NCBI GenBank assembly: GCA_963820065.1
Contig: CAWFYM010000001.1
Span: 168,767-232,766, forward strand
DNA: 64,000 nt
Direction of reading: 5' to 3'
Source of the DNA: an uncultured Actinomycetota bacterium
Lineage (GTDB): Bacteria > Actinomycetota > Actinomycetes > DATJPE01
Numbering within the stretch: the stretch's first letter is position 1; the number at the start of each line of letters is the position of its first letter. Both the position numbers and the translations under genes were made by a program. The notes under the pieces were generated by a model. The model did no database searches, was not told where the DNA came from, and was given only the letters and a program-made list of their open reading frames with translations. Shown here in pieces: positions 2,279 through 60,991 of the stretch.

Positions 2279-3550
2279 ATGGCGGCCATGGCTGCCACGT
2301 TCTCGCTGTCCGCTGCTGACCTCGAACGTCAGCGACTGCTACGCCGAGCCAAGGCCGTCGCCACCGGGCTGCTTCTGGTTGCGGCGGCCGTGTTTGTCGC
2401 GGTTCAACCAGCTGTCGAATCCGGAGCAGCCTGGGCCGGCTACGTCTCGGCCGCTGCGGAGGCGGGGATGGTAGGCGGCCTGGCCGACTGGTTCGCAGTG
2501 ACGGCACTGTTCCGCCACCCGCTCGGGATCCCGATTCCGCACACCGCGCTGATCCCGTCGCGCAAGGACGCCCTCGGCGCAGGCCTGGGGGCCTTCGTGG
2601 GTGACAATTTCCTGGCCCCGGAGGTGGTACGCCGTCGCCTTCAGCAGGTGGACGTGGCCGGGCGGGCCGGGGCCTGGTTGGCGCGCGAGGAGCATGCCAA
2701 GCGCGTGGCCGAGGAGATCGCGGTGGCGCTCAAGGGCGCGATCGACGTACTGCGTGACGACGACGTCCGTGCGGTCGCCGAGGAGGCGATCGGGCAGCGG
2801 GTTCGCTCCACGGCGGTCGCGCCGGTCCTCGGGAGGTTGCTCGGCGACGTCGTCGCGGACGGCTCGCACCACGCCCTGGTCGACGTCGCCTCCGAGCGCA
2901 CGGCCGCCTGGCTCGCGAGCAACCAAGCCACGGTCATCCGGATCGTGCAGAGCCAGGCCCCGACCTGGTCGCCGCGCTTCGTCGACCGTGCGCTCGCCAA
3001 GCGGGTCGCTGCCGAGCTGTCCCGCATTGCCAGCGAGGTCGCGGCCGACCCAGAGCACCCGATCCGCCGCGGGCTGGACGGATACCTCGAGGGGCTGGCC
3101 CGGGATCTGCGAGACGACGCTGCGACCGGTGAACGTCTCCAGGCCCTGGTCGGGCGCCTCCTCGAGCACGCCGCCACTCGTGAGGCGCTCGGCACGCTCG
3201 TGGGCGCCACGCGCCGCGCCGTCGTCGCGATCATCGAGCAGCCGGACGGTGAGCTTCGGGGGCGCACCATCCAAGCGCTCCAGGCCCTTGGCGAGCGGCT
3301 CTCGTCGGACGGTCAGCTCCGGGCCAAGGCCGACCAGTGGGTGGGGGACGCGGCCGAGCACGTCGTGACGACCTATCGCGACGAGCTGACGCGGGTCATC
3401 ACCGACACCGTCGATCGTTGGGACGGCGACGAGGCCGCACGTCGCATCGAACTCGCCGCCGGTCGAGACCTGCAGTTCATCCGGGTCAACGGGACGGTCG
3501 TGGGTGCCTTGGCTGGCATAGCCATCCACGCGGCGGCCACCGTCCTCTAG
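2279..3550 (+). CDS. DUF445 domain-containing protein
   Basis: 423-aa ORF with N-terminal membrane helices and the DWFAVTALFRHPLGIPIPHTALIP motif characteristic of DUF445. Confidence 0.75.
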   Translation: MAAMAATFSLSAADLERQRLLRRAKAVATGLLLVAAAVFVAVQPAVESGAAWAGYVSAAAEAGMVGGLADWFAVTALFRHPLGIPIPHTALIPSRKDALGAGLGAFVGDNFLAPEVVRRRLQQVDVAGRAGAWLAREEHAKRVAEEIAVALKGAIDVLRDDDVRAVAEEAIGQRVRSTAVAPVLGRLLGDVVADGSHHALVDVASERTAAWLASNQATVIRIVQSQAPTWSPRFVDRALAKRVAAELSRIASEVAADPEHPIRRGLDGYLEGLARDLRDDAATGERLQALVGRLLEHAATREALGTLVGATRRAVVAIIEQPDGELRGRTIQALQALGERLSSDGQLRAKADQWVGDAAEHVVTTYRDELTRVITDTVDRWDGDEAARRIELAAGRDLQFIRVNGTVVGALAGIAIHAAATVL

Positions 3551-3556
3551 GGCTGC

Positions 3557-4639
3557 CTACGGGTTCAGCGCTGAGTGCGGCACGACCTGGTGACTCTGCG
3601 CGGATCGGCGGGCCGCCTCGAGGATCTCCAGGCCTCGAACGGAATCGCGAGGGTCGACCGGCGGGCTCACGGATGAATCGGTCAGCGCTCGGGCGAGCTG
3701 AGCGTAGAACGCGGGGTAGTCCCCGCTCAGCGAGGCGACGGGGACCCGTTCATCGCCGGTGACCAGCTCACCCCAGGCCTCCCGCGCGACGGCGCCCCAG
3801 CCTTGCGACGGCCGGGCACCCGCGCGCAGCGCCTCCTCCTGCCCGTCCAGTCCGGCCACGACGTAGGCCGATTCAGAGCCGAGCACACGGAAGCGGGGAC
3901 CAGGACTGCCGGCCACGGCAGAGGCCCACAGGTGCGAACGGGCTCCGGACGCGTGCTCGAGCGCGATGAACACGTCGTCGTCTGCGGCCTGTGGCGAGCG
4001 ACGGCGATCGATCTCGGCGTAGACCGACACGACCGGTCCGAGCAGGAGCAGGGCCTGGTCGACCAGGTGACTGCCCAGGTCGAACAGGAGGCCGCCTGCT
4101 GCGTCGGGGTCGTCGCGCTCGCGCCAGCCGCCGCCAAGAGCCGGACGCCACCGCTCGAAGCGTGACTCGAAGCGGCGTACGTCGCCGAGCGTGCCGGCCC
4201 CGACCAGTGCCTGGATGGTCCGGAAGTCGCTGTCCCAGCGTCGGTTCTGAAACGTCGTGAGCAGCACGCCTGCTGATGAGGCCCCTTTGACGAGGTTGTC
4301 CGCCTCACCCGAGGTGGGGGCCATCGGTTTGTCGATCACGACCGATACTCCGGCCTCGATCGCCGCGCGCGCCAAGGTCACGTGCGTCGCGTTGGTCGTC
4401 GCGACCACCATCAGGTCGAGGTCGAGTCGCAGCAAGGCGTCGACGTCGTCGACGACGGTTGCGCCCGGATGATCCGCCTGTGCCTGGCTGATCCGAGCGG
4501 AGTCGCGCGTGACGATGCCCACGAGGGCGAGGTCGAGGTTTGCCGCGATGAGTGGCGCGTGGAACACCGCGCCGGCCAAGCCGTAGCCGGCGAGACCGAC
4601 ACGGAGGGGCTGATCGGCGCCTTCGGGTTGGGTTGTCAT
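3557..4639 (-). CDS. Gfo/Idh/MocA family oxidoreductase
   Basis: Start MTTQPEGADQPLRVGLAGYGLAGAVFHAPLI (Rossmann GxGxxG) followed by EAGVSVVIDKPMA, typical of this family. ATG at 4639 overlaps the TetR stop (ATGA). The longer track ORF to 5041 is a junk extension overlapping the TetR gene. Confidence 0.8.
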   Translation of the reverse strand: MTTQPEGADQPLRVGLAGYGLAGAVFHAPLIAANLDLALVGIVTRDSARISQAQADHPGATVVDDVDALLRLDLDLMVVATTNATHVTLARAAIEAGVSVVIDKPMAPTSGEADNLVKGASSAGVLLTTFQNRRWDSDFRTIQALVGAGTLGDVRRFESRFERWRPALGGGWRERDDPDAAGGLLFDLGSHLVDQALLLLGPVVSVYAEIDRRRSPQAADDDVFIALEHASGARSHLWASAVAGSPGPRFRVLGSESAYVVAGLDGQEEALRAGARPSQGWGAVAREAWGELVTGDERVPVASLSGDYPAFYAQLARALTDSSVSPPVDPRDSVRGLEILEAARRSAQSHQVVPHSALNP

Positions 4640-5385
4640 GCGTCGGTGGGGCGCCCGAGCAGGGAGAGGAAGGCCGTGAGCGCGCCTTCGAAGAAGGCCT
4701 CGGCATCGGCTACCACCTGCTGGTGCTGGCCGTTGAGCTCGAAACTGATGACGCCGTAGACCGCGTCGCGCACGGCAACGCCGGTCGCCATGAGGGCGGC
4801 CTCGTCGTCCGACAGGGCGCCGGAGCCGTGGTTCTCGAGCATCTCGGAGAGGACCGAGCGTCCAGGGACCCGAGGAGCTGGACCGGGGCTCAGCTCGCCC
4901 ACCGCCGCGGCTTCGGCCAGCAGCCGGACCAACAGGATCGAGACCCGGGAGGCGGGCCCGATCGTGTCCTGCGGGGCCGCGTAGCCGGGGACCGGGGACC
5001 CGTAGATGAGCGCCCACTCGTGGGGGTGAGACCGCGCCCACCGGCGGACGTTGCGGAAGACCTCGGCCGCCCGAGCGGCGAACGTGCTCTCGGAGTCGGC
5101 CGCGGCAGCGGCGTCGCCCCGTTCCACGACCTCACCGAGGGAGTCGTAGGCCTCGATGATGAGCGCGGTGAGCAGAGCATCGCGGCTGGGGAAGTAGCGG
5201 TAGACGGCTGAGGACGACATGCCGAGGTCGCGCGCCACCGCCCGCAGGGACAGCGCTGCGGCGCCGTCGCGAGCGAGATGGGTGCGCGCGACGTCGGTGA
5301 TCTCCTCGGTCAGTTCGGCGCGGACTCGCGCACGGGCCGAACTGGCCCGAGTCTCTGAGCGCGCCGTGTCGGTGGACGAGGTCAT
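4636..5385 (-). CDS. TetR/AcrR family transcriptional regulator
   Basis: N-terminal HTH LSLRAVARDLGMSSSAVYRYFPSRDALL; 249 aa. Confidence 0.85.
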   Translation of the reverse strand: MTSSTDTARSETRASSARARVRAELTEEITDVARTHLARDGAAALSLRAVARDLGMSSSAVYRYFPSRDALLTALIIEAYDSLGEVVERGDAAAAADSESTFAARAAEVFRNVRRWARSHPHEWALIYGSPVPGYAAPQDTIGPASRVSILLVRLLAEAAAVGELSPGPAPRVPGRSVLSEMLENHGSGALSDDEAALMATGVAVRDAVYGVISFELNGQHQQVVADAEAFFEGALTAFLSLLGRPTDA

Positions 5386-5427
5386 GAGGGAAGTCTGTCA
5401 GTGAAAGAGAGCGGTGACAAGAAGTGA

Positions 5428-8744: not shown

Positions 8745-9645
8745 TGGCCGCAAGCGCGCGGATCTGATCCGGCCCGACCCGGCAACAGCCGCCGATCATC
8801 CGCGCACCTGCATCCAGCCAGCTCGTGACCTGGGAGATCGTGAAGCCCGGGTCGCCGTGCCACTGGCGCTCGTCGGCGTCCCATGCTTCGCCGCTGTTGG
8901 GGTAGGCGACGATCGCCTTGCTCGTGATGCCGGCGGCTGCAGCGACCAGGGCCTCCACGTCATGGGGCGCCGAACAATTGACGCCGACGGCGACAACGTT
9001 GGAGACCTCCTCGGCCATGTCGAACGCCTCCAGCACGTCCTCGCCCCGGCGAGTCCGTAGTCCCTCACAGGTCAGGGACAGCCAGGCCGGGACACCGAGA
9101 TCGGCCACCTCGGCCAGCAGTGCCTCAGCTTCGGCCAGCGACGGGATGGTCTCAAGGGCGAGGAGGTCTGGCTCTGCGCTGGCCAGCACCTCGAGCCGCC
9201 GCCGATGCCACTGGCGTAGTTCGGGGACTCCGACGTCGGGGCCGTAGTCACCCGTGTATTCCTCGCCGTGGGCGAGCATGGCGCCGTACGGCCCGACGGA
9301 CGCAGCGACCCAGCGGGGCGTGCCGTGGTCTGGCTCGTCGCCCGCGGCTTGCCGCGCCAACTCGACGCTGCGCTGCAAGAGGCGGTCCGTGGCGGTGGCG
9401 TCGTACCCGGCGGCGGCCAGCCCCTCGTAGGACGCCTGATAGCTCGCGGTGGTGGCCACCTGCGCTCCGGCGGAGAAGTACGACCTGTGCACCGCGCGGA
9501 TCTCGTCGGGTGTCTGCGCGAGCAGTCTCGCTGACCACAGGTCACTGCTCAGATCGTGTCCGCGGGACTCCAACTCGGTCGCCAGGCCCCCGTCGAGCAC
9601 CACCAGCTGATCGCCAGCGCCGAAGCTTTGAGGGGACGTCGTCAC
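8710..9645 (-). CDS. mmuM: homocysteine S-methyltransferase
   Basis: LVVLDGGLATELESRGHDL..., ...AVGVNCSAPHDV..., ...MIGGCCRVGPDQIRAL match the MmuM/Pfam02574 motifs. GTG at 9645 gives about 311 aa, similar to E. coli MmuM. The track ORF extends to 9732. Confidence 0.8.
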   Translation of the reverse strand: MTTSPQSFGAGDQLVVLDGGLATELESRGHDLSSDLWSARLLAQTPDEIRAVHRSYFSAGAQVATTASYQASYEGLAAAGYDATATDRLLQRSVELARQAAGDEPDHGTPRWVAASVGPYGAMLAHGEEYTGDYGPDVGVPELRQWHRRRLEVLASAEPDLLALETIPSLAEAEALLAEVADLGVPAWLSLTCEGLRTRRGEDVLEAFDMAEEVSNVVAVGVNCSAPHDVEALVAAAAGITSKAIVAYPNSGEAWDADERQWHGDPGFTISQVTSWLDAGARMIGGCCRVGPDQIRALAAIRKARPDLPVR

Positions 9646-10212
9646 GTGGCCAGGATCCCACCTCGTGGGACTCCGGCCGTGGTTGAAGAAAGATCTTGAA
9701 CTTTCTGCGAACAACCTCTTGCGCGCCAGCACGCTTACCTGTTGAATCTCCCCACGTCACCGGAAGCGGTGGTCGGAGCCGGGGAAACCTTAGGCGCCGC
9801 AAGGGAATTCCGGCTTGCTGGAGTTCTTGCGCGGAGGGCACCATGCGCACGAAGGATCAGGGGAGACCCTGACCCGTCGGAGGCGGTGCGCCGCCGGTCA
9901 CAGTGGACGGAGACCGGTCGAGGGAGCCACTGGAGTCCTGGCAACGGGACGATCGAGGTGAAGCCGACCAGGGCAAGGCCCCGCGAACTCATACTTCGCG
10001 GGGCCTTGTTCCATGATGGGGGCGGCATCCCGGCGGACCGGGGAGCGACACGCGGGCCAGCCGACAGGGGCGCGGCGCTGGAGACCCGTCGAGTCAGGAC
10101 TTCTGAGCGCCGCGGCGGAGGCTTGGTACGAACGGCTGCCGGGCCTGGTCCGGCCGGGCGTGGCAGACTCGCGTGCAGCGGGGGACCCCCGCGGCCGATC
10201 GGAAGGGTGTTT

Positions 10213-12528
<2,316 letters not shown>

Positions 12529-12830
12529 CCGCCCCACCACCCCCTCCGCCCCCCACACGTGATCATGCGCAAATGGCCCCTGCCGTCCGGTCGGCCGCGC
12601 CCCGCCCGCCCGTCCACCCACCCCCCTTCGTGATCATGCGCAGATGGCCCCTCCGAGATCGCTCGGTCAGGGGCCATCTGCGCATGATCACGAAGGGGGA
12701 CGGTGGTCGTGGGGGAGGTTGAGCGTGGGCAGAGGGGCCATCTGCGCATGATCACGAGGGATGGTGGGTCGGGGTGATGGGGATGGGGATGGGGATGGGG
12801 CGCCCGGGGTCACGCGGGGTCACGCGGGGG
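12529..12830. repeat. Composite palindromic repeat element, copy A: C-rich arm, 2 direct core copies, loop, 2 inverted core copies, G-rich/G4 arm
   Basis: Core GTGATCATGCGCA(A/G)ATGGCCCCT at 12558-12580 and 12628-12650; its reverse complement at 12668-12690 and 12732-12754. The inner pair forms a roughly 31-bp perfect hairpin around loop ccgagatcgctcggtc. GGGGATGGGGATGGGGATGGGG lies at about 12775-12796. Confidence 0.85.
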
Positions 12831-12831
12831 A

Positions 12832-13455
12832 TTAGTGGCCGCGGGCCAGCCAGGCGTCCAGGTGTGGGGCCTCGGCGCCGATCGTGGTGGGGTCGCCGTG
12901 GCCGGTGTCCACCACCGTCTCCGGCGGCAGCACGAGCAGCCGGTCACGGATCGAGTCGATGATCGTGGGGAAGTCTGAGTACGAACGCCCGGTGGCGCCT
13001 GGGCCTCCGTTGAACAGGGTGTCCCCGCTGAACAGGGCGCCGTGCTCGGCGTCGTAGAGGCAGACCGCGCCCGGAGCGTGCCCCGGCGTGTGGAGCACGG
13101 TCAGCGTGTGCTCACCAACGGCGAACGTCTGCCCGTCAGCAAGCTGTTCGTCGGGGGAGCGGTCCGGGTAGACGGTGTCCCAGAGCATCCGGTCGTCGGC
13201 GTGCAGCCAGATCGGCGCCTCGACGAGCGCCTGCAGGTCAGCGGCTGCCCCGATGTGGTCGTCGTGACCGTGGGTCAGAACGATCGCGGTCACCCGACGG
13301 CCGGCCACGGCCGCGGCGATGGCTGCCGCGTCATGAGCGGCATCGACCACGAGCACCTCGTCGGCATTACCCACGAGCCAGACGTTGTTGTCGACGTCCC
13401 AGGTGCCGCCGTCGAGGCTGAAGGTCCCGGACGTGATGACCCGCTCAACAGCCAT
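12832..13455 (-). CDS. MBL-fold metallo-hydrolase (candidate S-formylmycothiol hydrolase)
   Basis: [10 protein letters not shown]...IVLTHGHDDHIGAA...HTPGHAPGAV is a metallo-beta-lactamase fold with the HxHxDH motif. ATG at 13455 overlaps the stop of the upstream dehydrogenase (ATGA). The longer track ORF to 14262 is out-of-frame junk. Confidence 0.8.
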   Translation of the reverse strand: MAVERVITSGTFSLDGGTWDVDNNVWLVGNADEVLVVDAAHDAAAIAAAVAGRRVTAIVLTHGHDDHIGAAADLQALVEAPIWLHADDRMLWDTVYPDRSPDEQLADGQTFAVGEHTLTVLHTPGHAPGAVCLYDAEHGALFSGDTLFNGGPGATGRSYSDFPTIIDSIRDRLLVLPPETVVDTGHGDPTTIGAEAPHLDAWLARGH

Positions 13456-14670: not shown

Positions 14671-15312
14671 TCAGTCGATGCGGACGACGCCGTGCGCGGT
14701 CTGGAAGGCGACGGCCAGCAGGCCGGCTTCGTCGCTCGCGGCCTGCCACGTGATCGCGCCGCCATCGATGGGGGAGTCGATCGGTCCGCCGAGCCAGGCC
14801 CGAACCTTGTCGATGTCCCCGGCGAGCTCGCAGGAGGCGATCCCGACCGTGGCCGGCGCGACCCGGGACGGGTGGTCCTCGGCCGAGGACGTCCACTGGG
14901 TGAAGTACGGAAGCGCCGGGTCGTCGATCAGGTCATTGACGCCGATCTGGCGCCAGGTCAGCAGGTGTCCGTCGGGACGGATCCGGTGCGCTTCGACCGA
15001 GCGTCGTCCAAGTCGGGCTTCGATCGGTGCGAGGTCATCGACCGAGACCACCCAGCCGAGCCAGCCGCCGCCGAGCTCGGCACGGCGCCGCACGGCCTGG
15101 CCGAACGGGGCGTTCTCGGCTGCCGGATGGTCGAGGGCGGCCACCACCTCGATGTAGACGCCGTCGGTCAGCGGGAGCACAAAGTTGCTCGTGCCGAACT
15201 GCGGGTGCCGCCCACCGTCGAGGAACGCGCAACCCAGGGTGGCCCCGAGTCGTTGGACGGTGTCGGCGAGCTCCCCGGCGGATACCGCGTAGGACACGTG
15301 GTCGAGACGCAT
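14671..15312 (-). CDS. VOC family (glyoxalase/bleomycin-resistance fold) protein
   Basis: Internal [13 protein letters not shown]...; glyoxalase-like domain. Confidence 0.6.
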
Positions 15313-15416
15313 GCGGGCATCCTCCCCCACGGCCGATGCCAGCCCGACTCGGGGTCCCCTGCCCACAGGTCGGACACGCGGCCGGGTCTGCCAGAGAGGT
15401 CTGTCAGGATCGTCGA

Positions 15417-18260
15417 GTGAACGAGGTGACGAGACCCGAGTCGGCGCCGACGTCGGCCGCCGGGCCGCTCGACGGGCGACCTGAAGGCTTCAGGTCGGAC
15501 GAGAGCGACGCGCTGCGCGCCGAGATCCGGCGCCTGGGGGACCATCTCGGATCGGCGTTGGTGCGGCAGGAAGGCCCCGAGCTCCTCGAGCTCGTTGAGG
15601 AGATCCGTGGACTCGTGCGCACCGACCCCGCGGTCGTCGCGAGTCGGCTGGAGAGCATCGATCTGCCGACGGCGATTCGGCTGGCTCGGGCGTTCTCGTC
15701 CTACTTCCACCTCGCCAACATCGCCGAGCAGGTCCACCGGGCTCGCGGGATCCGCGACCGACGGTTGGCCGGCGGGGGCCGGTTGGCCGAGGTGGGCCGA
15801 CGCATCGTGGCCGAGGTCGAGGCCGGTTCTCTCGATCGCGACGCGGTCGAAGGGGTCGTCGGTCGGCTGAGTGTCCGCCCGGTGTTCACCGCGCACCCCA
15901 CAGAAGCGGCCCGGCGCTCCGTGCTCGTCAAGCTGCGCCACATCGGCGACCTGCTCGACGCTCCCGCCGACAAGGCCGTCAGGGCTGACCGTTCGATCGC
16001 CGAGCTGATCGACCTGCTCTGGCAGACCGACGAACTCCGGCTGGACAAGCCCCAGGTCGTCGACGAGGCGCGCAACGCCCTCTACTACCTCGACGACCTC
16101 GTCGGCGACCCACTCACGGCGGTGCTGGACGACCTCGACGACGCGCTGGCGCCGATCGAGGCGCGACCGGCCGCCGCGGCCAAGCCGCTCGCGTTCGGCT
16201 CGTGGATCGGCGGGGATCGCGATGGCAACCCCTTTGTCACGGCCGAGGTGACGACCCGGGTGCTTGCGCTGCAGCACGAGCACGCCGTGCGCGCGCTGCT
16301 GCCGGTGCTCGACCAGCTGTTGCAGGATCTCAGCACCAGCGAGCGGATCGTCGACGTCTCCGAGGAGCTGCGGACCAGCCTCGCCCGCGATCTCGAGACC
16401 CTCCCGGACCTCGACCCGCGGTTTCGCAGGCTCAATGCCGAGGAGCCCTACCGCCTCAAGGTCACCTGTATCCACGCCAAGCTGACCCGCACCCGGACGC
16501 GGGTCTCGACCGGGCGGCCGCACCAGCCGGGCCACGACTACTCCTGCGCCCGCGAGCTGATCGATGACCTGCTGCTGGTTCGCGACTCGCTGCGGGACCA
16601 CAAGGGCGGCCTCGCCGCTGAGGGGTCGGTGCGGACGGCGATCCGTACGGCGGCTGCGGTCGGCCTGACCATGGCGACCCTCGATGTGCGCGAGCACGCC
16701 AGCGCCTTCCACCACGCGGTCGGGCAGCTCGTCGATCGTCTCGGCGAGCACGGCTGGCGCTACGAGGACCTGCCCTCCGACTACCGCACCCGCCTGCTGG
16801 CGGCCGAGCTCGCCAGCGTGCGTCCGCTGGCACCGACCCCACCTCCTCTCGACGCGACCGGCTTGCGGGCGTGGAGCACGTTCGTCGCCGTGCGAGAGGC
16901 CCAGGACCGCTACGGGCCCGACGTCTGCGAGTCCGCCATCGTGTCCATGACCAAGGGGCCGGACGACGTGCTGGCCGCGGTCGTCCTGGCCCGCGAGGCC
17001 GGTCTCGTCGATCTGACCGCCGGGACGGCCCGGGTTGGTTTCGTGCCCTTGCTGGAGACTGTCGATGAGCTGCGCCGGGCTGACCATGTCCTCGACGCGC
17101 TGCTCTCTGACCCCTCGTACCGGCGGATCGTGTCGCTCCGCGGCGACTTCCAGGAGGTCATGCTCGGCTACTCCGACTCGACGAAGGACGCCGGGATCGC
17201 GACGTCACAGTGGGAGATCCACCTCGCGCAGCGGCGCCTGAGAGAAGTGGCGCTGCGCCACGGCGTACGCCTTCGGCTGTTCCACGGTCGCGGAGGCTCG
17301 GTGGGCCGGGGCGGTGGGCCGACCTACGACGCGATCCTCGCGCAGCCCTGGGGTGTGTTGGACGGAGAGATCAAGGTCACCGAGCAGGGTGAGGTGATCT
17401 CCGACAAGTACCTCCTGCCGGAGCTGGCCCGCGAGAACCTCGAGCTCACGCTGGCCGCCGTGCTCGAGTCTTCGGTCTTGCACCAGGGACCTCGGGTCAG
17501 CGCCGAGGCGCTGCAGCGGTGGGACGCAGTCATGGACACGGTTTCGGCGGCGGCCCAAGCCGCCTACAGGGGCTTCGTGGATGCCCCGGGACTGCCGGCG
17601 TACTTCTCGGCCACCACCCCGGTGGACGTGCTGGGCGACCTGCACCTGGGGTCTCGACCCGCGCGCCGTCCCGATGCGGACGCTGGTCTCGAAGGGCTTC
17701 GCGCGATCCCGTGGGTCTTCGGCTGGACGCAGTCCCGCCAGGTGGTCCCGGGATGGTTCGGCGTCGGCTCGGGGCTGCGGGCGGCGCGCGAAGCCGGGCA
17801 CGGCGACGTCCTGGCCCAAATGCATGGGCAATGGCACTTCTTCGCCAACTTCGTGTCCAACGTCGAGATGACGCTGGCCAAGACCGACCTCGAGGTGGCC
17901 CGGGCTTACGTCGAACGGCTGGCCCCTCCCGGGCTGGCTGAGTTCTTCGAGGTGATCCGCGAGGAGTACGAGCGGACCGTGATCGAGATCCTGGCGCTCA
18001 CGGGGCACGAGCGGCTGCTCGGTGGCCAGCCCGAGCTGGCGCGGACCCTGGCCGTTCGGGACACCTACCTCATGCCGCTGCAGTATCTGCAGGTCTCGCT
18101 GCTCCACCGACTGCGGGCCGCAGCCGCCGCAACCGATGCCACCGATGCTCAGCAGACCGACGGTCCAGGCGAGGACGAGGGCGCTGTTGACCCGCTGCTA
18201 CGGCGTGCTCTGCTGTTGACCGTCAACGGCATCGCCACGGGCCTTCGCAACACCGGCTGA
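15417..18260 (+). CDS. ppc: phosphoenolpyruvate carboxylase
   Basis: About 947 aa from GTG 15417. N-terminal [21 protein letters not shown], motifs [19 protein letters not shown]-terminal ...NTG. The 5' part of track ORF 15027.. is Arg-rich junk. Confidence 0.9.
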
Positions 18261-24177: not shown

Positions 24178-24395
24178 CCGGACGGTCTCCTCCCAGGCGC
24201 CGCCTGTGCGGGCGGGGGTCGAACCTACCGGCGCCTGGGTTTGAGCGGGCGAGTCGCCGGGGATGAGTCCCAAGCCCGCCCCGCTCCGGCGGCCTCCGGC
24301 GTCGCCACGAGCGGGGCGGGACCAACCTTGGGCCGTGGCCCGGCCACCCGCTCGACGATCGTGCGGGTGGGTCCGGACTCGTCATCCACAGACTC

Positions 24396-25913
24396 ATGTG
24401 GGGGATACCCACGGTCGATGGACGCGTTCTAGGTTGGCCGCCATGGAGATCGCTCCGGGCGTACGGTCCGGAGTCCGTCGGGTGCGCTCCGAGCGACTCG
24501 GCGCCGGCGGGATGGTGCTGGCCGCGGCAGCGCCTGCTGCTCACGGCTTGCGCGTCGTCGGCCGGGACGCCGGGCAGCTTGGCGCCCCTCGAGCCCACGG
24601 AGGTGGCCACCCCGGTGGCCTCGGCCACCCCGTCCGAGTCAGCGACGACGGAGTCCGAGGAAGCAGCTATCGAAGCCGCGGTACGGGAGTACTTCGCGGC
24701 GATGGACGAAGCGGTCCGACCGGCGATGTCTCAGACGTTCGTCGCCGGCAACCACGCGCCGACGTGTCCCTGCCGAAGTTCTTGCGGACTGCCGTGAAGC
24801 AGGGCGTTCGCGCAGGGTGAGGATCGTGGGAGCGAGTGGCGGTTGATTGACCTTTCAGCGAGCGTGACACCGGTTCCGGTCGCGCAGTGTCGACGGTGAC
24901 CTACAAGACAGTCCGCGATACGAGACAGCGATCCGACGATGGTGACCGTCAAGAGCTTCGAAGCCTAGCACCGTCGCCAAGATCCAGCGAGGTCGTTCTG
25001 GTCCAGATCGCGGGCCGATTGGTTCGGTCGGGCCGACGAGATGCTCATCTCGGAGACGCTCATGAGGGTGCGGCTTGGCTGGTCTCCTCTCGCTACGGCG
25101 ATGTCGCGCTGGTTGCTCCAGCACTGTCTCGGCCGACGCGGCACGGATGCGACATCGGTATCGTCTGCGAGGTCGTATGGCAATGATGAGTTGAAGGCCA
25201 TCGAGGGGCGGGTGTTGATTCCGGCGGAAGGGTTCGAGGGCGATCCCGGGGTCCGGCACGAGGCGGCTACCTGTGACGGCTGCTCGTGGGCGCTCACGCC
25301 CAGCTGTGCCGGCAACGACGAGAACACGCAGAATGGCTGTGCTGCGACGGTCACCCTCTGCCCGCCGCCAGCCCTTCGCTACGACATCCTGCGCCGACGA
25401 CCCGGCGAGGCCGCGTTCGTCTTTGTCGGGTCGACCTGCATTGCTCCCGGGACGCCCTTGACCGTCGACGACCTGACGCCCCAGGTTCGCGACCACTTCC
25501 TCGACCTGCTCCCCGACCAGCAGCCCTCCTTCCAACCGACCGCGGGGGCGTTGGTCAACGTGCCCGCGTTGTTTGCCGCAGGGCAGCCCCGGACGATCGG
25601 GCGGGACACGTTCGACCTGGCTGGGTTCACCGTGGTGCTCACCGCCGACGCTCGCTGGACCTGGGACTTCGGTGATGGCGCCACGCAGACGTACGACGTG
25701 CCTGGTGGGCCGTACCCCAACGACGACGTCGCTCATACCTACCTGGACTCGGAAGATCGGGCCGTCGTGGTCACGACCACCTGGGACGGCGAGTTCATGG
25801 TCGACGGGCTCGGTCCGTTCCCCGTAGCCGGGCCGCCGGTGACCCAGGTGAGTCCTCCGCTGCTTGTCCCCGTGCGCGGCGCGCGGTCGGAGCTCGTCTC
25901 CGGGGACGGCTGA
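24396..25913 (+). pseudogene. Possible disrupted secreted lipoprotein/PKD-like gene, comprising lipobox-containing N-terminal fragments (24396-24797, in two frames) and a PKD-like C-terminal ORF (25041-25913), separated by a lower-GC stretch with stops in all frames
   Basis: One frame gives MVLAAAAPAA (h-region). The +1 frame gives LLLTACASSAGTPGS (lipobox LTAC), then PTEVATPV...AAIEAAVREYFAAMDE. The downstream ORF carries a Cys-rich segment and TWDFGDGATQTY (PKD-like WDFGDG) with no signal peptide of its own. Confidence 0.35.
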
Positions 25914-27331: not shown

Positions 27332-28837
27332 GTGTCGTCGGTCCGTCGCCCCACAGCTGAGTCGAATGACGTCGTGGACGCCGATTCCCGGACTCGGGTT
27401 CACGCGGCCAAGGCGGCAACCAAGACCGCCGTCACCGCCAAGGCCGCGAAGTCGGCACCATCAAAGTCGGCACCATCGAAGTCGGCGGCCACGAAGGCCG
27501 CAGCGTCCAACGGGAAGGCCGCGACGCCGGCCAAGGCGAGCCCGACCAAGGCTGCGGCTGCTAAGACCTCCGCGTCAAAGACCGCGGCCGCGAAGACAGC
27601 GCCCGCTAAGACCGCGGCAGCCAAGGCGGGGGAGGCCAAAGCCCGACCAGCGAAGGCTGCGAAGGCTGCGCCGGCGAAGTCCACACCGGCGAAGTCCACA
27701 CCGGCCAAGGCTGCAGCGAAGTCCGCTTCGAAGTCTGCTTCGAAGGCCAGCGACAAGGATGAGCCGGCGGGCGATGCCGCCAAGGGGACGGCGACAGCCG
27801 ACGAGCCCGAGGGTGCCGAGGGTGCCGAGGGTTCCGAGGTCAAGCCGGAGGATGCCAAGGACGGCTCGTTCACGCTGTCCGACAGCGACGAGGGCGACGA
27901 GCCCGTCCAGCAGGTCGTGGTCGCAGGCGCCACCGCCGACCCGGTCAAGGACTACCTCAAGCAGATCGGCAAGGTTCCCCTGCTCAACGCCGAGCAGGAG
28001 GTCGAGCTGGCGAAGCGCATCGAGGCTGGCCTGTTCGCCGAGGAGAAGATCAACTCCGGCGACAAGTTCAACGCTCAGCTGCGCCGGGAGCTCGACTGGA
28101 TCGCCGAAGACGGCCGCCGGGCCAAGAACCACCTGCTCGAGGCCAACCTTCGGCTCGTGGTCTCGCTGGCCAAGCGCTACACGGGCCGCGGCATGCTCTT
28201 CCTCGACCTGATCCAGGAGGGCAACCTCGGCCTGATCCGCGCAGTGGAGAAGTTCGACTACACCAAGGGCTACAAGTTCTCGACCTACGCCACGTGGTGG
28301 ATCCGCCAGGCGATCACCCGGGCGATGGCCGACCAGGCCCGGACGATCCGCATCCCGGTCCACATGGTCGAGGTCATCAACAAGCTCGCCCGGGTGCAGC
28401 GGCAGATGCTGCAGGACCTTGGTCGCGAGCCGACTCCGGAGGAGCTCGCCAAGGAGCTCGACATGACCCCGGAGAAGGTCGTCGAGGTCCAGAAGTACGG
28501 CCGTGAGCCGATCTCCCTGCACACCCCGCTGGGCGAGGAGGGTGACAGCGAGTTCGGAGACCTGATCGAGGACTCCGAGGCGGTCGTCCCCGCCGACGCC
28601 GTGTCGTTCACGTTGCTGCAGGAGCAGCTGCACCAGGTGTTGGACACGCTCTCCGAGCGTGAGGCCGGCGTCGTGTCGATGCGGTTCGGGCTCACCGATG
28701 GGCAGCCCAAGACGTTGGACGAGATCGGCAAGGTCTACGGCGTCACCCGCGAGCGCATCCGCCAGATTGAGTCCAAGACCATGTCGAAGCTGCGCCACCC
28801 GTCTCGCTCGCAGGTCTTGCGCGACTACCTCGACTGA
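27332..28837 (+). CDS. rpoD: RNA polymerase principal (group 1) sigma factor with Lys/Ala/Pro-rich N-terminal tail
   Basis: GTG at 27332 after GAGAGG. Regions 1.2-4 are all present ([58 protein letters not shown], region 4 [31 protein letters not shown]). About 200 aa of AK(S/T)APAK repeats precede region 1.2. Confidence 0.9.
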
Positions 28838-48122: not shown

Positions 48123-48469
48123 GCCGGCCGCTGGAGGCGTGTCGCTCGTTCGCGCTCGGCCTGCCCGAGGCCTGGGAGGACCAGCCCTGGGAGGAATCGT
48201 TGGTGGCCAAGGTCGGCCAGAAGATCTTTGTCTTCTTCGGTCCGCCCGAGCAGCCCGGGATCTCGGTCAAGCTGCCGGACAGCGCCGACCATGCGCTGAG
48301 CCTGGCTGCGGGCGCACCGACCGGCTATGGGCTCGGCCGCCACCGCTGGGTGAGCCTCGACCTTGCCGCGCGTGACTGCCCGGACACCGAGGTCCTGTTC
48401 GACTGGGTCGAGGAGAGCTACCGCACCGTGGCGCCCAAACGCCTGGTGACCCAGCTCGACACCCCCTAA
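48119..48469 (+). CDS. MmcQ/YjbR family DNA-binding protein
   Basis: ATG overlaps the AlkP stop (ATGA). MSRPLEACRSFALGLPEAWEDQPWEESLVAKVGQKIFVFFGPP matches the family. The track ORF from 47984 is an extension. Confidence 0.7.
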   Translation: MSRPLEACRSFALGLPEAWEDQPWEESLVAKVGQKIFVFFGPPEQPGISVKLPDSADHALSLAAGAPTGYGLGRHRWVSLDLAARDCPDTEVLFDWVEESYRTVAPKRLVTQLDTP

Positions 48470-48574
48470 CCCGCCCCGCTCATGCCCCTGGGCCCCCGCC
48501 CAAACCCCTGAGCCCTCGCCCCTCTGGTGGACGTCTTGATCGCGGGACTTCGGTCTCGCGGGGAGGATGTCTTC

Positions 48575-48871
48575 ATGTCAGGTCAACGTCGCAGATTTAC
48601 TCCGGCTTATCGGCGGGAGGCGGCTCATCTGGTGATCGATACCGGGCGGCCGATCGCGGTGGTCGCTCGGGAGATCGGTTTGGGTGAGCAGTTGTTGGGT
48701 CGGTGGGTCGCGGCCGAGCGAGCGCGGATGGCTGACCCGCCGGACGTGCTCGGGGAGGACGAGCGGGCCGAGCTGGCCCGTTTGCGTCTGGAGAACACCG
48801 AGCTGCGGATGGACCGGGAGTTCCTGAAAAAAGCTGCGGCCTTCTTCGCGACCGAACCCCAGAGCCGGTAG
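48575..48871 (+). CDS. IS3 family transposase OrfA (HTH)
   Basis: MSGQRRRFTPAYRREAAHLVIDTGRPIAVVAREIGLGEQLLGRWV...LENTELRMDREFLKKAAAFF. RBS GGGGAGG. Confidence 0.85.
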   Translation: MSGQRRRFTPAYRREAAHLVIDTGRPIAVVAREIGLGEQLLGRWVAAERARMADPPDVLGEDERAELARLRLENTELRMDREFLKKAAAFFATEPQSR

Positions 48872-48882
48872 AGGCTTACGCG

Positions 48883-49761
48883 GTGATGGACGCGGAGAAG
48901 GCGGACTTCGCCCTCGACCGGATGGCTGAGCTGCTCGGGGTGTCCCGGTCGGGCTACCACGCTTGGGTTCGGCGGCTGGCCGCCGGTCCGAGCCGCGCTC
49001 AGCAGCGTCGGACCGACTTGACCGTGAAGATCGCGGCCTTCCACGCCGATTCCGATGCGGTCTATGGGTCCCCGCGGATCCTGGCCGACCTGCGCGAGGA
49101 CGGTGAGCGGGTCTCCCGCAAGACCGTCGCGAAGCTCATGCGCCAGGCGGGGATCGCCGGGATCAGCCCACGCAAGTTCACCCCGGTCACCACCCTGGCC
49201 GGCCCGGACCCGTGTCCGGTGCCCGACCTGGTCGGGCGGAAGTTCGACCGTGGTAGCCCGAACGTGGTCTGGACCAGCGACATCACCTACCTGGGCACCG
49301 ACCAGGGCTGGCTCTACCTGTGCGCGGTCCGCGACGCGTGCTCACGGCGCGTCCTGGGCTGGGCCATCGAGGACCACCTCCGCACCGACCTCGTCGAGGC
49401 TGCCCTGCGTATGGCGGTGACCTTGCGCGGTCACCTACCGGTCAAAGTGATCTTCCACGCCGACCGCGGCACCCAATACACCTCGACTCAGATCGCCGAG
49501 GTCATCAAAGACCTGCCCGTGCTGTCCTCGATGGGCCGCACCGGGGTCTGCTGGGACAACGCCCCTGCGGAGTCCTTCTGGTCCACGTTCAAAACCGAGT
49601 TCTACGACCGGCGCCACTGGGCCACGAAGGCCGAAGCCAAGCAGGCGTCAGCCCGCTGGATCGAGGAACGCTACAACCGCAAGAGACGCCACTCCTCGAT
49701 CGGCATGCTCACACCCGTACGCTTCGAAGCACTCAACCCTCAGACGGCACAAGCCGCCTGA
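48883..49761 (+). CDS. IS3 family transposase OrfB (integrase core DDE), probably expressed as an OrfAB fusion by -1 frameshift
   Basis: rve domain with DDE residues (...WTSDITYL..., ...HADRGTQYTS..., ...CWDNAPAESFWSTFKTEF). It is in the -1 frame relative to orfA and open back to the A6G run. Confidence 0.85.
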   Translation: MMDAEKADFALDRMAELLGVSRSGYHAWVRRLAAGPSRAQQRRTDLTVKIAAFHADSDAVYGSPRILADLREDGERVSRKTVAKLMRQAGIAGISPRKFTPVTTLAGPDPCPVPDLVGRKFDRGSPNVVWTSDITYLGTDQGWLYLCAVRDACSRRVLGWAIEDHLRTDLVEAALRMAVTLRGHLPVKVIFHADRGTQYTSTQIAEVIKDLPVLSSMGRTGVCWDNAPAESFWSTFKTEFYDRRHWATKAEAKQASARWIEERYNRKRRHSSIGMLTPVRFEALNPQTAQAA

Positions 49762-49775
49762 ACGCCTGTCCACCA

Positions 49776-50060
49776 GATGGGGTCAACCCCACCATCGTTC
49801 GTGATCATGCGCGGATGGCCCCTCTTGCCGCGCTCGGACCAACCTCCTAGGCCCCCGCTGGCCGCTGATCATGCGCGGATGGCCCCGCTTGCCCCTCGCC
49901 GCCACCGCCCGCCCGACCCGCCCCTCGGCGGCTAGGGGCCATCTGCGCATGATCACGAAGAGGGTGTGGGGTGTCCGATGGGGTGTGGGGTGTGGGGGTG
50001 TGGGGTGAGTTGGGGCTTTGGGAGTCGCGGGGGGTGGGCGTGCGACGATGTCGCGGCCGT
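49776..50060. repeat. Composite palindromic repeat element, copy B (right part; left C-rich arm at about 48468-48524 is separated from it by the IS3 element)
   Basis: Forward cores GTGATCATGCGCGGATGGCCCCT (49801-49823) and GCTGATCATGCGCGGATGGCCCC (about 49864-49886); inverted core AGGGGCCATCTGCGCATGATCAC (about 49934-49956); then G-rich GGGGTGT repeats at 49962-50040. Confidence 0.8.
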
Positions 50061-60163: not shown

Positions 60164-60500
60164 CCCACCCCTCCGCCCAACCCCACCCGCTCGTGATCAT
60201 GCGCAGATGGCCCCTGTCGGGCCGCGTGCCGCGCCGCGCAACCCCAACCCCCCTCGTGATCATGCGCAGATGGCCCCTATTTTCCGGTGCCGGGGCCTCT
60301 AGCCGTCGGTGGCGTCGTGGTGCTGCACAGGTGCCCGCCGCTTCGTCGCGGTTCCTGTGACTCGATCGCTTGGGTGCTGTCCGCAGTCCCACAGGCGCGG
60401 AAGTACGGGCCATTTGCGCATGATCACGGATGGGTGTGGGTCTAACTGGGGAGGATCAGCGGGGGACCAGGGGCCATCTGCGCATGATCACGAGGGGGGT
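60164..60500. repeat. Composite palindromic repeat element, copy C: C-rich arm, 2 direct cores, 130-bp central segment, 2 inverted cores, G-rich arm
   Basis: GTGATCATGCGCAGATGGCCCCT at 60193-60215 and 60257-60279. Inverted copies are GGGCCATTTGCGCATGATCAC (about 60408-60428) and AGGGGCCATCTGCGCATGATCAC (60469-60491). The stop codon of the convergent DUF3093 gene lies inside the last inverted core. Confidence 0.85.
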
Positions 60501-60991
60501 GGTGCTGGGGGGCGGGCAGCCTCGAGGGCGGCGACGAGGGCCTCGGGATGGCGCGTGGACACATACCAGTACGGCGCTGGGTCTGCCGCGTCCGCCACCT
60601 CAACCCGGACGGCGGTCGGCACCCAGCTGCGGAGGTACAAGTAGGCCCGGGGATCAGCCCCGGGGCCTCTCAGCCAGCGCGCGGCCGCGGCGTCGAGAGC
60701 CACGGCGGCACCCGCTTGGGCTAGGGGCAACCGGGCCCGCCCCGCGCGAAGCGTCGCGTCTTCGACGCTGACCCGCGCGCTCGTCGCTCGCAGCCCCAGC
60801 ACCACCCCCACACCACAGCCAAGCAGCACCACCAGCCCTGCCCACGGTCCGAGCGCGGCCTCGATCGCTACCGCGAACACGGCGACGACGCCCAGCGCCA
60901 CGACCCACAGGCCTGGGGGGGCCGGAATCGACTCGCGAAAAGCCACGTCACGCGAGCCGCTGGCCGCGTCGCCTGTTCCACCACCCGCCAT
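60488..60991 (-). CDS. DUF3093 domain-containing protein
   Basis: Two N-terminal TM helices, then ...RAYLYLRSWVPTAVRVEVADAADPAPYWYVSTRHPEALVAAL, matching DUF3093 (Rv2698-like). The start may be internal. Confidence 0.7.
   Translation of the reverse strand: MAGGGTGDAASGSRDVAFRESIPAPPGLWVVALGVVAVFAVAIEAALGPWAGLVVLLGCGVGVVLGLRATSARVSVEDATLRAGRARLPLAQAGAAVALDAAAARWLRGPGADPRAYLYLRSWVPTAVRVEVADAADPAPYWYVSTRHPEALVAALEAARPPAPPPS

Follow-up and report, generated by a model that had tools for sequence, protein, structure and literature searches.

Between an aldo/keto reductase gene ending at position 12528 and a convergent MBL-fold hydrolase gene ending at 12832, an uncultured Actinomycetota bacterium carries a palindromic element that fills the gap completely. 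Here we ask what kind of sequence this element is and how it came to lie at the junction, using the window, i.e. the whole stretch of 64,000 nucleotides in which it is found. The best explanation, to which we give a probability of roughly 50%, is a non-autonomous, REP/BIME- or MITE-like palindromic repeat that is specific to its lineage, has a core read by a protein, and would have the effect of a bidirectional Rho-assisted terminator.

A preliminary description, made by reading the DNA without database searches, had proposed that this copy (copy A) contains a core found twice in direct and then twice in inverted orientation, flanked by a C-rich left arm and a G-rich right arm, lying exactly between two convergent genes. 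All four core positions, the composition of the arms and the location were recovered, see Table 1. The inner pair of cores lies in a perfect 31-nt inverted repeat (12622-12652 / 12669-12699), while the outer pair is slightly diverged. The loop was said to be a mini-hairpin of its own, and its 16 nt do form a hairpin of 5 bp. The claim that the long palindrome can fold also holds, as the 303 nt reach -213 kcal/mol on the plus strand (z -9.6) and -214 kcal/mol on the minus strand (z -11.4), and none of 100 shuffled sequences was as stable in either case. When folded as DNA, the inner 122 nt reach -59.7 kcal/mol (z -11.8). The outer arm consists of short tandem repeats (GATGGG x4.2 and CGGGGTCACG x2.5) and contains two G4 patterns (12771-12794 and 12797-12830), the first of which, GGGGTGATGGGGATGGGGATGGGG, fits the canonical pattern, in keeping with the G-quadruplex tract proposed earlier.

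Table 1. Features of the three copies of the element, in positions of the window.
Feature	Position	Strand	Remarks
Copy A, whole composite	12529-12831		303-nt spacer; 2 direct and 2 inverted cores
Outer C-rich arm, copy A	12529..12558	+	begins directly 3' of the aldo/keto reductase stop codon
Core A1, GTGATCATGCGCAAATGGCCCCT	12559..12581	+	1 mismatch
C-rich spacer between direct cores, copy A	12582..12629	+	start-to-start period 71
Core A2	12630..12652	+	consensus
Apex loop of copy A, CCGAGATCGCTCGGTC	12653..12668		mini-hairpin, GATC central
Core A3	12669..12691	-	consensus; perfect 31-bp stem with A2
Spacer between inverted cores, copy A	12692..12732	-	period 64; plus strand G-rich
Core A4	12733..12755	-	consensus
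Outer arm, copy A	12756..12831	-	plus strand G-rich; C-rich in the MBL transcript
Outer C-rich arm, copy B	48470..48518	+	after the YjbR-family gene stop; separated from the rest by the IS
IS3-family insertion sequence	48519..49781	+	within the C-rich arm of copy B; not part of the element family
Rest of C-rich lead-in, copy B	49782..49800	+	
Core B1	49801..49823	+	1 mismatch
Core B2	49865..49887	+	3 mismatches
Core B3	49934..49956	-	consensus
G-rich arm, copy B	49957..50040	-	(GGGGTGTG)n; G4 pattern 49980-50005; upstream of the thymidine kinase gene
C-rich arm, copy C	60164..60192	+	directly after the DUF4235 gene stop
Core C1	60193..60215	+	consensus
Core C2	60256..60278	+	consensus; period 63
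Centre of copy C, 126 nt	60279..60404		holds GATCGCTTGG (60364-60373), resembling the copy A apex
Core C3	60405..60427	-	2 mismatches
Core C4	60469..60491	-	consensus
Outer arm, copy C	60492..60520	-	plus strand G-rich

The same architecture had been reported at 49.8 kb and 60.2 kb. For the latter this is accurate: copy C (60164-60520) has two direct and two inverted cores between convergent genes and folds with z -9.2. At 49.8 kb the family does recur, but copy B, with its two direct cores and a single inverted one, is flanked by genes that run in the same direction, has been split by an IS3 element (inverted repeats 48519-48532 / 49768-49781, HTH_Tnp_1 and rve domains) and folds no better than shuffled sequence (z -0.07). 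Copies A and C are collinear homologues, with 73% identity over 78 nt in the left arm and 88% over 49 nt in the right arm. The outermost inverted cores of copy C, C1 and C4, are 97% identical over 31 nt, and here it is the inner pair that is more diverged. All three loci are intergenic, and five of the six flanking genes turn their 3' end to the element, the exception being the thymidine kinase gene at copy B. Overlap with coding sequence is limited to copy C and the final ~8 codons of its DUF3093 gene, where the TGATCA of core C4 provides the TGA stop codon and the outer arm codes for the final residues (PPAPPPS), past the Pfam domain of the protein.

The 23-nt core, GTGATCATGCGCAGATGGCCCCT, has 11 matches with at most three mismatches at these three loci, against 0.00 expected from 100 shuffles of the 64-kb window, which bears out the earlier view of a dispersed repeat family and not a local oddity. 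The members are palindromic, ~200-360 bp long, and combine the 23-bp motif with C-rich and G-rich arms. Direct cores are spaced ~64 bp apart. The core is not a palindrome; it is bipartite, with box 1 (TGATCATGCGC), two variable purines and box 2 (ATGGCCC), and at positions 2-12 and 15-21 all 12 copies agree, i.e. the 11 of the window and a solo unit from an independent MAG described below. As a pattern for genome scans it reads TGATCATGCGCNNATGGCCC.

Conservation is sharply limited to the core, and the flanks are conserved in composition only. Mean pairwise identity is 94.8% among cores, 59% in the 40 nt upstream and 51% in the 40 nt downstream, where composition-matched shuffles give 55% and 49%. 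The sequence upstream of each core retains 59% C and 15% G. A three-way MAFFT alignment misplaced the cores and was excluded from the results. We also considered whether the arms of a locus resemble each other more than they resemble those of other loci, as expected from a local inverted duplication, and found no support for this: all comparisons fall at 59-76%.

The core is not maintained by base pairing. Alone it folds at -0.1 kcal/mol, worse than its shuffles (z +1.4), and together with its C-rich lead-in it reaches z +1.6. The 5' half of the element is likewise unstructured (z +0.4), for the full element z lies at about -9 to -12, and the hairpins arise solely between inverted copies of the core. 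Substitutions in the core have no compensating change in the paired arm. The core is conserved as sequence and not as pairing, so that its most probable reader is a sequence-specific protein that recognises it as DNA. Such a protein would act in trans, from a gene at another place in the genome; a transposase or recombinase that spreads the element would be the simplest candidate, the alternative being a host DNA-binding protein.

To see how widely the family is distributed we scanned 185,579 species genomes and found one genuine copy, a solo unit in another Actinomycetota MAG (MFD00905.bin.2.215, L002) with a 22/23 core match and the same C-rich lead-in. There were no genuine copies in the metagenome and viral scans. 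A metagenome scan with the core pattern (18 specified bases) gave 19 single matches, which we rejected as chance or coding sequence because none has the C-rich lead-in; several sets of them have identical or near-identical flanks, i.e. they are one gene in different contigs. The scan of viral contigs and the blastn searches of phages and plasmids gave no match to the core. Peptides from open reading frames over the core (RGHLRMIT, GPSAHDH, VIMRRWP, DHAQMAP) were searched against a collection of 5.8 billion proteins, where three candidates shared words and none scored. The core string was not found in any relevant paper, and literature searches found no comparable actinobacterial REP or MITE families. 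The sequence family appears undescribed, as the preliminary description suspected; its kind, interspersed intergenic palindromic repeats, is well known.

These searches also bear on the idea that the element is an assembly artefact, a structured RNA gene or a CRISPR-like array, which we regard as very improbable. The source is indeed a MAG, and its long hairpins draw weak matches to microRNA precursors in Rfam. However, the three loci have distinct flanks and arm sequences, and the genes around them are all intact and keep their synteny with relatives. The core and lead-in of the independent MAG show that the family is not an artefact. Rfam has no match at gathering scores in the whole window; at permissive E-values only generic microRNA hairpins appear, the best being mir-1460 with 37.5 bits against a threshold of 74. 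No promoter-like site was found at the element. The earlier rejection of a CRISPR array stands as well: the orientation flips, each locus has at most two direct repeats, regular spacers are absent from the window, and no cas-like domain was found among 30 window proteins (Pfam) or in the annotation of the syntenic genes.

The orthologous junctions of relatives were located by the flanking proteins, which have 74-90% identity, in seven contigs. The core is absent from all covered orthologous sites and from ~3-21 kb around each. What the junctions have instead is a gap of 1-21 nt, a small C/G hairpin or an insert of unrelated sequence. In contig_9022 the gaps measure 21, 15 and 1 nt at sites A, B and C, respectively. 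Sites B and C are empty in contig_61302, as is site B in L028, and L027 has no core at site C. The core is absent from site A in L003, L005, L029 and L030, the last with a gap of 10 nt, and site A differs in every relative examined. In a profile search for diverged cores (nhmmer) nothing significant was found in the loci of six relatives, about 109 kb, while the loci of L029 and L030 were read solely at the junction, outside this search. The 279-nt insert of L003 at site A was considered as a decayed copy and rejected, as its alignment was matched by 85 of 300 shuffles. The absence of cores, together with what the junctions hold, indicates that the elements are lineage-specific and the sites dynamic. 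By the criterion that the preliminary description set for its own claim the family is private to its lineage, but the solo unit shows that it is no artefact. For REP-like repeats, a distribution limited to one species or lineage is the normal case.

The closest relative, L005 (90%; JGI 3300081966), has at site A a C-rich arm, GTGATC and a G-rich arm. Its arm aligns to that of the window up to GTGATC with a score of 27, compared with 18.9 ± 3.2 for shuffled sequences, 9 of 300 of which scored as high. C-rich tracts without cores are found at site A in three close relatives (L005, L029 and L003), which may mean that the arms are host hairpins of older date and not part of a mobile unit.

This variability could also be expected if the copies were functionless debris, in which slippage or template switching makes palindromes at hairpin-prone gene junctions and gene conversion, not selection, homogenises the cores. 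The arms are short tandem repeats specific to each locus, and the likeness of the flanks does not exceed that of composition-matched shuffles. However, conversion would have to be confined to exactly 23 bp, with sharp edges and two internal variable positions, which is an odd requirement; moreover, the loci lie 10-37 kb apart and the same core and lead-in are found in a different MAG. We consider this origin doubtful.

Another explanation is a non-mobile cis module selected by the host, consisting of a Rho-type terminator and an array of binding sites for a host DNA-binding protein, such as a regulator, a termination factor or a nucleoid-associated protein. Such a module would have arisen through duplication in place and been dispersed by recombination or gene conversion. 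The strict invariance of the bipartite core, its retention at 22/23 in the second MAG, a spacing of direct cores equal to six helical turns and the rut-like and hairpin-like composition all agree with such a module, as does the fact that neither a transposase nor a target-site duplication for the element was found in the window. On the other hand, every relative examined manages without the element at the same junctions, beside the same conserved housekeeping genes, and only 2 of ~12 convergent junctions in the window are occupied. The DUF3093 protein owes its rewritten C-terminus to copy C, and an IS insertion is tolerated in copy B. Taken together these observations look like insertion and not like designed regulation, and we think a host module unlikely.

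In our preferred reading, a lineage-specific repeat of REP/BIME or MITE type, the composites would have been gained, and sometimes lost, at gene-end junctions after the lineage split from its sequenced relatives. The window contains no candidate for a mobilising gene; its sole transposase is that of the IS3 element, whose inverted repeats (CCCCTCTGGTGGAC) are unrelated to the core. Neither the 30 window proteins (Pfam) nor the annotation of the syntenic genes includes a RAYT (Y1 HUH) domain. No target-site duplication was found outside the cores, and within each core only the palindrome GATC/TGATCA could be one. The case for TGATCA as a strict target is weak, as nine such sites in the window are unoccupied and none is present at the empty versions of site B.

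A more specific proposal is a miniature transposon without cargo, which either has ends with multiple sites, as Tn7, Mu and Tn402 do, or is a TG...CA DDE-type MITE that targets TGATCA. It would insert at a hairpin apex or at abutting convergent stops (TGA+TCA), and nested self-insertion would give the 2+2 arrangement. Each end does have two direct 23-bp sites, with the ends mutually inverted, and, should TGATCA be a duplication of 6 bp, the ends become TGCGCA...TGCGCA, i.e. 5'-TG...CA-3'. GATC recurs at the apex of copy A, whose perfect inner and slightly diverged outer pair fit nesting; however, copy C shows the opposite. The unoccupied site A has GTGATC in L004 and L005, and site C has TGAaTCA in L025, but GTGATC occurs about once per 1.1 kb, which, with the unoccupied TGATCA sites of the window, makes these matches weak evidence, and the empty versions of site B lack the hexamer. 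The collinearity of A and C along the whole composite suggests that a four-core unit was copied whole, and no autonomous parent element is seen in the window. We therefore find this proposal improbable.

How far the element resembles known families can be judged from the REP/BIME sequences of E. coli (units Y, Z1 and Z2). Both consist of a short conserved motif repeated in extragenic DNA, here 11 copies at three loci in 64 kb, mostly in 3' UTRs and between convergent genes, in clusters (1-12 units in REP/BIME) that form hairpins or cruciforms. REP units bear a 5' GTAG or CGTC tetranucleotide tag; this is missing here, where the core starts with GTGA and is preceded by ...CYTC. In addition, the conserved unit is not itself a palindrome, the orientation is ++-- (A and C) or ++- (B) and not alternating, and the host is an actinobacterium. 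The element thus fails several defining tests for classical REPs. Its microsatellite arms are strongly C>G-skewed, while REPs lack this skew (10.64898/2026.03.23.713779). REP/BIME sequences are species-specific, and they are known targets of insertion sequences (PMC1525189); in both respects the family is similar, an IS3 element lying inside copy B.

HUH Y1 enzymes recognise an internal REP hairpin, and since the core contains none, unlike those of the REPIN-RAYT system, recognition of the RAYT type is unlikely. The repeat-associated RAYTs (Groups 2 and 3) have been described from Enterobacteria, Pseudomonas, Stenotrophomonas and Neisseria. REPINs themselves consist of two inverted conserved sequences of ~21-25 nt and a less conserved spacer, form a long hairpin, are mobilised by RAYTs and also occur as higher-order clusters, nested insertions and singlets (PMC3116915). 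The two inverted cores and spacer of copy A, with its stem and loop, are of this form, and the solo unit of L002 resembles a singlet.

Two other families invite comparison. The Correia MITEs of Neisseria are small (100-350 bp), non-coding, have terminal inverted repeats, insert at gene ends and alter 3' ends and C-termini. The outermost cores here are inverted too (A1/A4, C1/C4), and the element is present or absent at orthologous sites; it differs in that no flanking direct-repeat duplication and no related autonomous IS were found in the window, the internal sequence is unconserved between copies, and the subterminal cores are duplicated. MIRUs are actinobacterial, with units of 46-101 bp in short direct tandem intergenic arrays whose ends overlap neighbouring stop codons. 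The actinobacterial host, the intergenic location and the stop-codon overlap are shared, but MIRUs are not palindromic composites, keep to a single orientation within operons and are unrelated in sequence.

The composition of the arms suggests what the element may do to transcripts. Ranked by C content, the tracts behind the four stop codons that abut an element come first among all post-stop tracts of the window (57-62% C, 12-25% G); that of the aldo/keto reductase gene has 62% C and 12% G in its 40 nt. Of the five 78-nt stretches with the most extreme C/G ratio on either strand, three are element arms. On the minus strand the ratio is 10 in the G-rich arm of copy B, the maximum of the window, and 4.3 in the outer arm of copy A, compared with a 99.9th percentile of 3.4. 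All four runs-of-4 G4 or i-motif patterns in the 64 kb lie within the arms, three of G-type (Table 1; text for copy A) and one of C-type (48462-48497), as predicted by pattern matching. No canonical intrinsic terminator (hairpin and U-tract) was found in 12300-13000.

A transcript that runs past an arm-abutting stop (both neighbours of A and C, and the upstream gene of B) would gain 30-100 nt of C-rich, unstructured, rut-like RNA and then a very stable hairpin. This predicted arrangement resembles a Rho-dependent terminator, although ordinary rut sites are not dispersed and have no conserved 23-bp motif. From this layout the element should work as a bidirectional Rho-assisted terminator, and it would also protect 3' ends, like E. 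coli REP; REP325 is a partly Rho-dependent terminator and mRNA stabiliser (bioRxiv 10.64898/2026.03.23.713779). The small fraction of convergent junctions occupied shows that it is not the general terminator here, and bidirectional Rho-type termination or 3'-end protection is probably a secondary effect.

A bolder version, which we regard as a long shot, is small mobile DNA of a new class, which would home to the apex of terminator hairpins or to abutting convergent stops, which form a TGATCA-like palindrome, and regenerate its target centrally, giving nested palindromes; the C-rich, G4-prone arms would be a portable bidirectional Rho-type terminator, and the enzyme would be unrelated to RAYTs.

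If the preferred reading is correct, the known interspersed palindromic repeats would gain a family from an uncultured lineage of actinobacteria, and the reader of its non-hairpin core could reveal a different route by which such repeats are mobilised or maintained. The combination of a core of the protein-binding type, rut-like C-rich leaders and G4-prone arms makes it a testable case. It would represent a selfish repeat that serves at the same time as a bidirectional terminator where convergent genes are tightly packed, and its insertions would rewrite the C-termini of proteins, as in the DUF3093 protein.

The 23-nt core GTGATCATGCGCAGATGGCCCCT has 11 matches in the window at up to three mismatches, compared with 0.00 expected from dinucleotide-preserving shuffles. 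They are found at three loci, copies A, B and C, see the table. Both the repetition of the core and its dispersal, claimed in the preliminary description, are borne out, and the core family is the only sizeable dispersed repeat of the window. The mean pairwise identity of the cores is 94.8%. In the 40 nt upstream it is 59%, against 55% in composition-matched shuffles, and in the 40 nt downstream 51% against 49%, i.e. the conservation is sharply limited to the core. All 12 copies, 11 from the window and one from outside it, are identical at positions 2-12 (TGATCATGCGC) and 15-21 (ATGGCCC) and differ only at positions 1, 13, 14, 22 and 23. The core is therefore bipartite, with the variable positions 13 and 14 between two invariant blocks. 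No compensating changes for the core substitutions were found in the opposite arm, and the core alone folds worse than shuffled sequence (z +1.4), which argues that sequence and not pairing is the conserved feature. Judged from the sequence, this is how a protein recognition site would look, rather than an RNA helix.

Element copies, the same junctions (sites A, B and C) in related contigs found via flanking proteins, and other repeats and regions. Core positions are starts with strand; identities are those of the flanking protein by which each contig was found.
Feature	Sequence	Position	Identity	Description
Copy A cores	window	12559+, 12630+, 12669-, 12733-		
Copy B cores	window	49801+, 49865+, 49934-		
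Copy C cores	window	60193+, 60256+, 60405-, 60469-		
IS3-family insertion sequence	window	48519-49781		orfA with HTH_Tnp_1, orfB with rve domains; inverted repeats CCCCTCTGGTGGAC / GTCCACCAGATGGG
End of DUF3093 gene	window	60488-60520		within copy C
Sites A, B, C	contig_9022 (L004/L025)		81-85%	gaps of 21 nt (A), 15 nt (B) and 1 nt (C)
Sites B, C	contig_61302 (L026)		79%	both covered, both empty
Site B	L028		78%	alone covered, 18-nt gap
Site A	L030		82%	alone covered, 10-nt gap
Site C	L027 (ERZ25039464 contig_21083)	3821-5395	82% (partial)	unrelated insert of ~1.5 kb containing an ORF of 107 aa and one of DUF222 type (weak Pfam hit)
Site A	L003 (ERZ25039539 contig_52196)	10625-10903	85%	alone covered, 279-nt insert
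Site A	L029 (JGI 3300086378)	3311-3373	86%	alone covered, C/G hairpin without core
Site A	L005		90%	alone covered, 79-nt C/G hairpin
Perfect tandem array	L003	5005-5072		four copies of the 17-nt unit GTCCACACCGTGGCACT; intergenic, upstream of DUF4192 gene
Thymidine kinase fusion	L025 (contig_9022)	14759-16324		called as 521 aa with a rhodanese domain
In-frame 15-nt unit x3.3	window	51049-51097		TTLST repeats in DUF3071-family gene
In-frame 9-15-nt tandem units	window	27447-27839		Ala/Lys-rich N-terminal region of principal sigma factor
Divergent intergenic region	window	9604-10213		unusually long, 610 nt
Divergent intergenic region	window	24179-25190		unusually long, 1012 nt

Copy A fits exactly between two convergent genes, as had been stated, with the aldo/keto reductase stop at 12528 and the MBL-fold hydrolase stop at 12832. 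Its inner pair of cores lies in the perfect 31-nt inverted repeat described earlier, and the 16-nt loop is itself a small hairpin. The folding energy of the 303-nt spacer is -213 kcal/mol (z -9.6) for the + strand and -214 kcal/mol (z -11.4) for the - strand. The 5' half as a whole is unstructured, z +0.4. The claim that all three loci share one architecture stood for copy C, where two direct cores are followed by two inverted ones (2+2) between convergent DUF4235 and DUF3093 genes (fold z -9.2), but only in part for copy B. The latter is incomplete, with two direct cores and one inverted core instead of two, and folds no better than shuffled sequence. It is located between co-directional YjbR-family and thymidine kinase genes, and its left C-rich arm is interrupted by the IS3-family insertion sequence, for which a clear target-site duplication was not identified. 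The orientation of the cores flips within each locus, in agreement with the earlier statement that this is not a CRISPR array.

The start-to-start distance between direct cores is 63-71 nt. Copies A and C are collinear along the full composite: their left parts are 73% identical over 78 nt, their right parts 88% over 49 nt, and their apex motifs, GATCGCTCGG in copy A and GATCGCTTGG in copy C, are similar. This suggests that the four-core unit, rather than the single core, was copied. At copy C the element also reaches into a protein. The DUF3093 protein has 152 residues, and its Pfam domain reaches only to residue 141. The C-rich arm encodes the final ~8 residues (PPAPPPS), and the TGA stop is supplied by the TGATCA of core C4, the fourth core of copy C. 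The tails in the relatives are different and variable; the native tail has been replaced by the element.

With the units oriented on the core, the lead-in of every core is a C-rich tract ending in ...CC(Y)TC, and these upstream tracts contain 59% C and 15% G. The outermost arms are short tandem repeats specific to each locus, (GATGGG)4, (CGGGGTCACG)2.5, (GGGGTGTG)3.4 and a 20-mer x2.4. A G-quadruplex tract had been noted in copy A, and indeed all four runs-of-4 G4/i-motif patterns of the 64 kb fall in element arms. When 78-nt segments of both strands are ranked by C/G ratio, three of the top five are element arms, and the four most C-rich post-stop tracts of the whole window belong to the four genes with a stop codon abutting an element. 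The arm composition is thus peculiar to the elements.

Next to an arm, the predicted tail after the stop codon is 30-100 nt of C-rich, G-poor, unstructured RNA, followed by a very stable hairpin. This layout holds for the genes with a stop abutting an arm, i.e. both neighbours of copies A and C and the upstream gene of copy B. Rho prefers C-rich, G-poor, unstructured RNA. No U-tract terminator is present at the element, and a hairpin without a U-tract led us to reject an intrinsic terminator. From a rut-like tail and a hairpin lacking a U-tract, we infer that the element would act as a bidirectional, Rho-assisted terminator and 3'-end protector. Such a dual role was recently demonstrated for REP325 of E. 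coli (10.64898/2026.03.23.713779). Only two of the approximately 12 convergent junctions in the window are occupied, so the element is an optional add-on and not the standard terminator of the lineage.

In the relatives the junctions are empty or differently filled. As far as these sequences tell, the core-bearing composites are specific to the lineage of the window, and the junctions at sites A-C are hot spots of insertion and deletion. A profile search of six relatives' loci (~109 kb) found no diverged cores; the L029 and L030 loci, outside this search, were read at the junction only. The unrelated insert in L027 makes the DUF3093/DUF4235 junction an insertion hot spot in another lineage too. 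In the L003 insert a C-rich tract directly follows the MBL stop; the insert has a modest fold (z -2.3) and carries its own short repeats, GTGGCCTTCGATTGCC / GTAGCCACTCGATTGC. It was rejected as a relative of the element, because 85 of 300 shuffles score as well. The L029 contig terminates within a small C-rich/G-rich hairpin, 63 nt past the MBL stop, and this assembly break could hide a repeat. In L005, the closest relative, the order is C-rich arm, GTGATC, G-rich arm. The arm aligns to the MBL-side arm of the window exactly until GTGATC, with a score of 27 against 18.9 +/- 3.2 for shuffles, equalled by 9 of 300. Site A can be read in two ways: the cores may have been inserted at the GTGATC apex of an older C/G hairpin, or they may have been lost in L005, which would retain their footprint.

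These observations agree with an interspersed, non-autonomous palindromic repeat of the REP/BIME-MITE kind. The bipartite core would be recognised as DNA by a sequence-specific protein whose gene would lie elsewhere in the genome, most simply the enzyme spreading the element, or alternatively a host DNA-binding factor. No mobilising gene was found in the window. Its only transposase belongs to the IS3, and the inverted repeats of this IS show no relationship to the core. No target duplication was found outside the cores; within them, the palindromic GATC/TGATCA at each core's outer end is the sole candidate. With TGATCA as the duplication, the termini of the element would read TG...CA, and its target would be the palindrome formed by two abutting convergent TGA stops. 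Unoccupied sites give weak hints in this direction, GTGATC at site A in L004 and L005 and TGAaTCA at site C in L025. However, GTGATC is found every 1.1 kb or so, the window has nine TGATCA sites without an element, and TGATCA is missing from site B where that site is empty. The 2+2 layout would be explained by nested self-insertion, which fits the perfect inner pair of copy A but not copy C, where the inner pair is more diverged than the outer.

With REP/BIME and REPINs the element shares a short conserved extragenic motif at gene 3' ends, hairpins between inverted copies, clusters and singlets, lineage-specific sequence and IS insertion inside (PMC3116915; PMC1525189). In contrast to REP/BIME, the unit is not itself a palindrome, the orientation is not alternating and the GTAG/CGTC tag is absent. 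REPs have no C>G skew (10.64898/2026.03.23.713779), whereas the arms here are among the most skewed sequences of the window. No RAYT gene is present in the 64 kb. The element is not a classical REP/BIME or REPIN member. Terminal inverted repeats and presence/absence at orthologous sites resemble a MITE, but the element has no demonstrable target duplication or parent IS within the window. Two direct sites per end are reminiscent of Tn7- or Mu-type transposons, whose ends are multi-site.

The window is ordinary chromosomal DNA, encoding citrate synthase, the principal sigma factor, dUTPase and similar genes, as well as type II topoisomerase subunits (GyrB-like, GyrA/ParC-like). Thymidine kinase is a 221-aa gene here, and in L028 it is separate from the rhodanese gene. 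Among named genera the MBL protein is closest to Actinopolymorpha (75% identity); all closer matches are environmental sequences. Scanning one genome per species (185,579 species) for the exact core gave two matches, one of them genuine: the MAG of an uncultured Actinomycetota bacterium has a solo unit after a gene stop (...ccctccccaccccttcGTGATCATGCGCAGATGGCCCCg). The other, from a Maricaulis MAG and without the C-rich lead-in, was rejected as chance, and all 19 single matches in metagenomes were rejected as chance or coding. Viral contigs, phage records and plasmid records contained no match to the core. The Rfam search proposed earlier gave no match at gathering scores, with only generic microRNA hairpins below threshold; the two long divergent intergenic regions also had no match at gathering scores. 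A literature search for the core string found no relevant paper containing it.

The repeat element is real, and its sequence family appears to be undescribed. Judged by the three loci and the single copy outside the window, the family is confined to one lineage of uncultured actinobacteria. The family belongs to a familiar class of bacterial repeats, and its unusual traits are the bipartite core that is not a hairpin, the head-to-head 2+2 layout with a phasing of about six turns, the G4-prone C/G microsatellite arms, the insertion exactly between convergent stop codons, and one rewritten protein tail.
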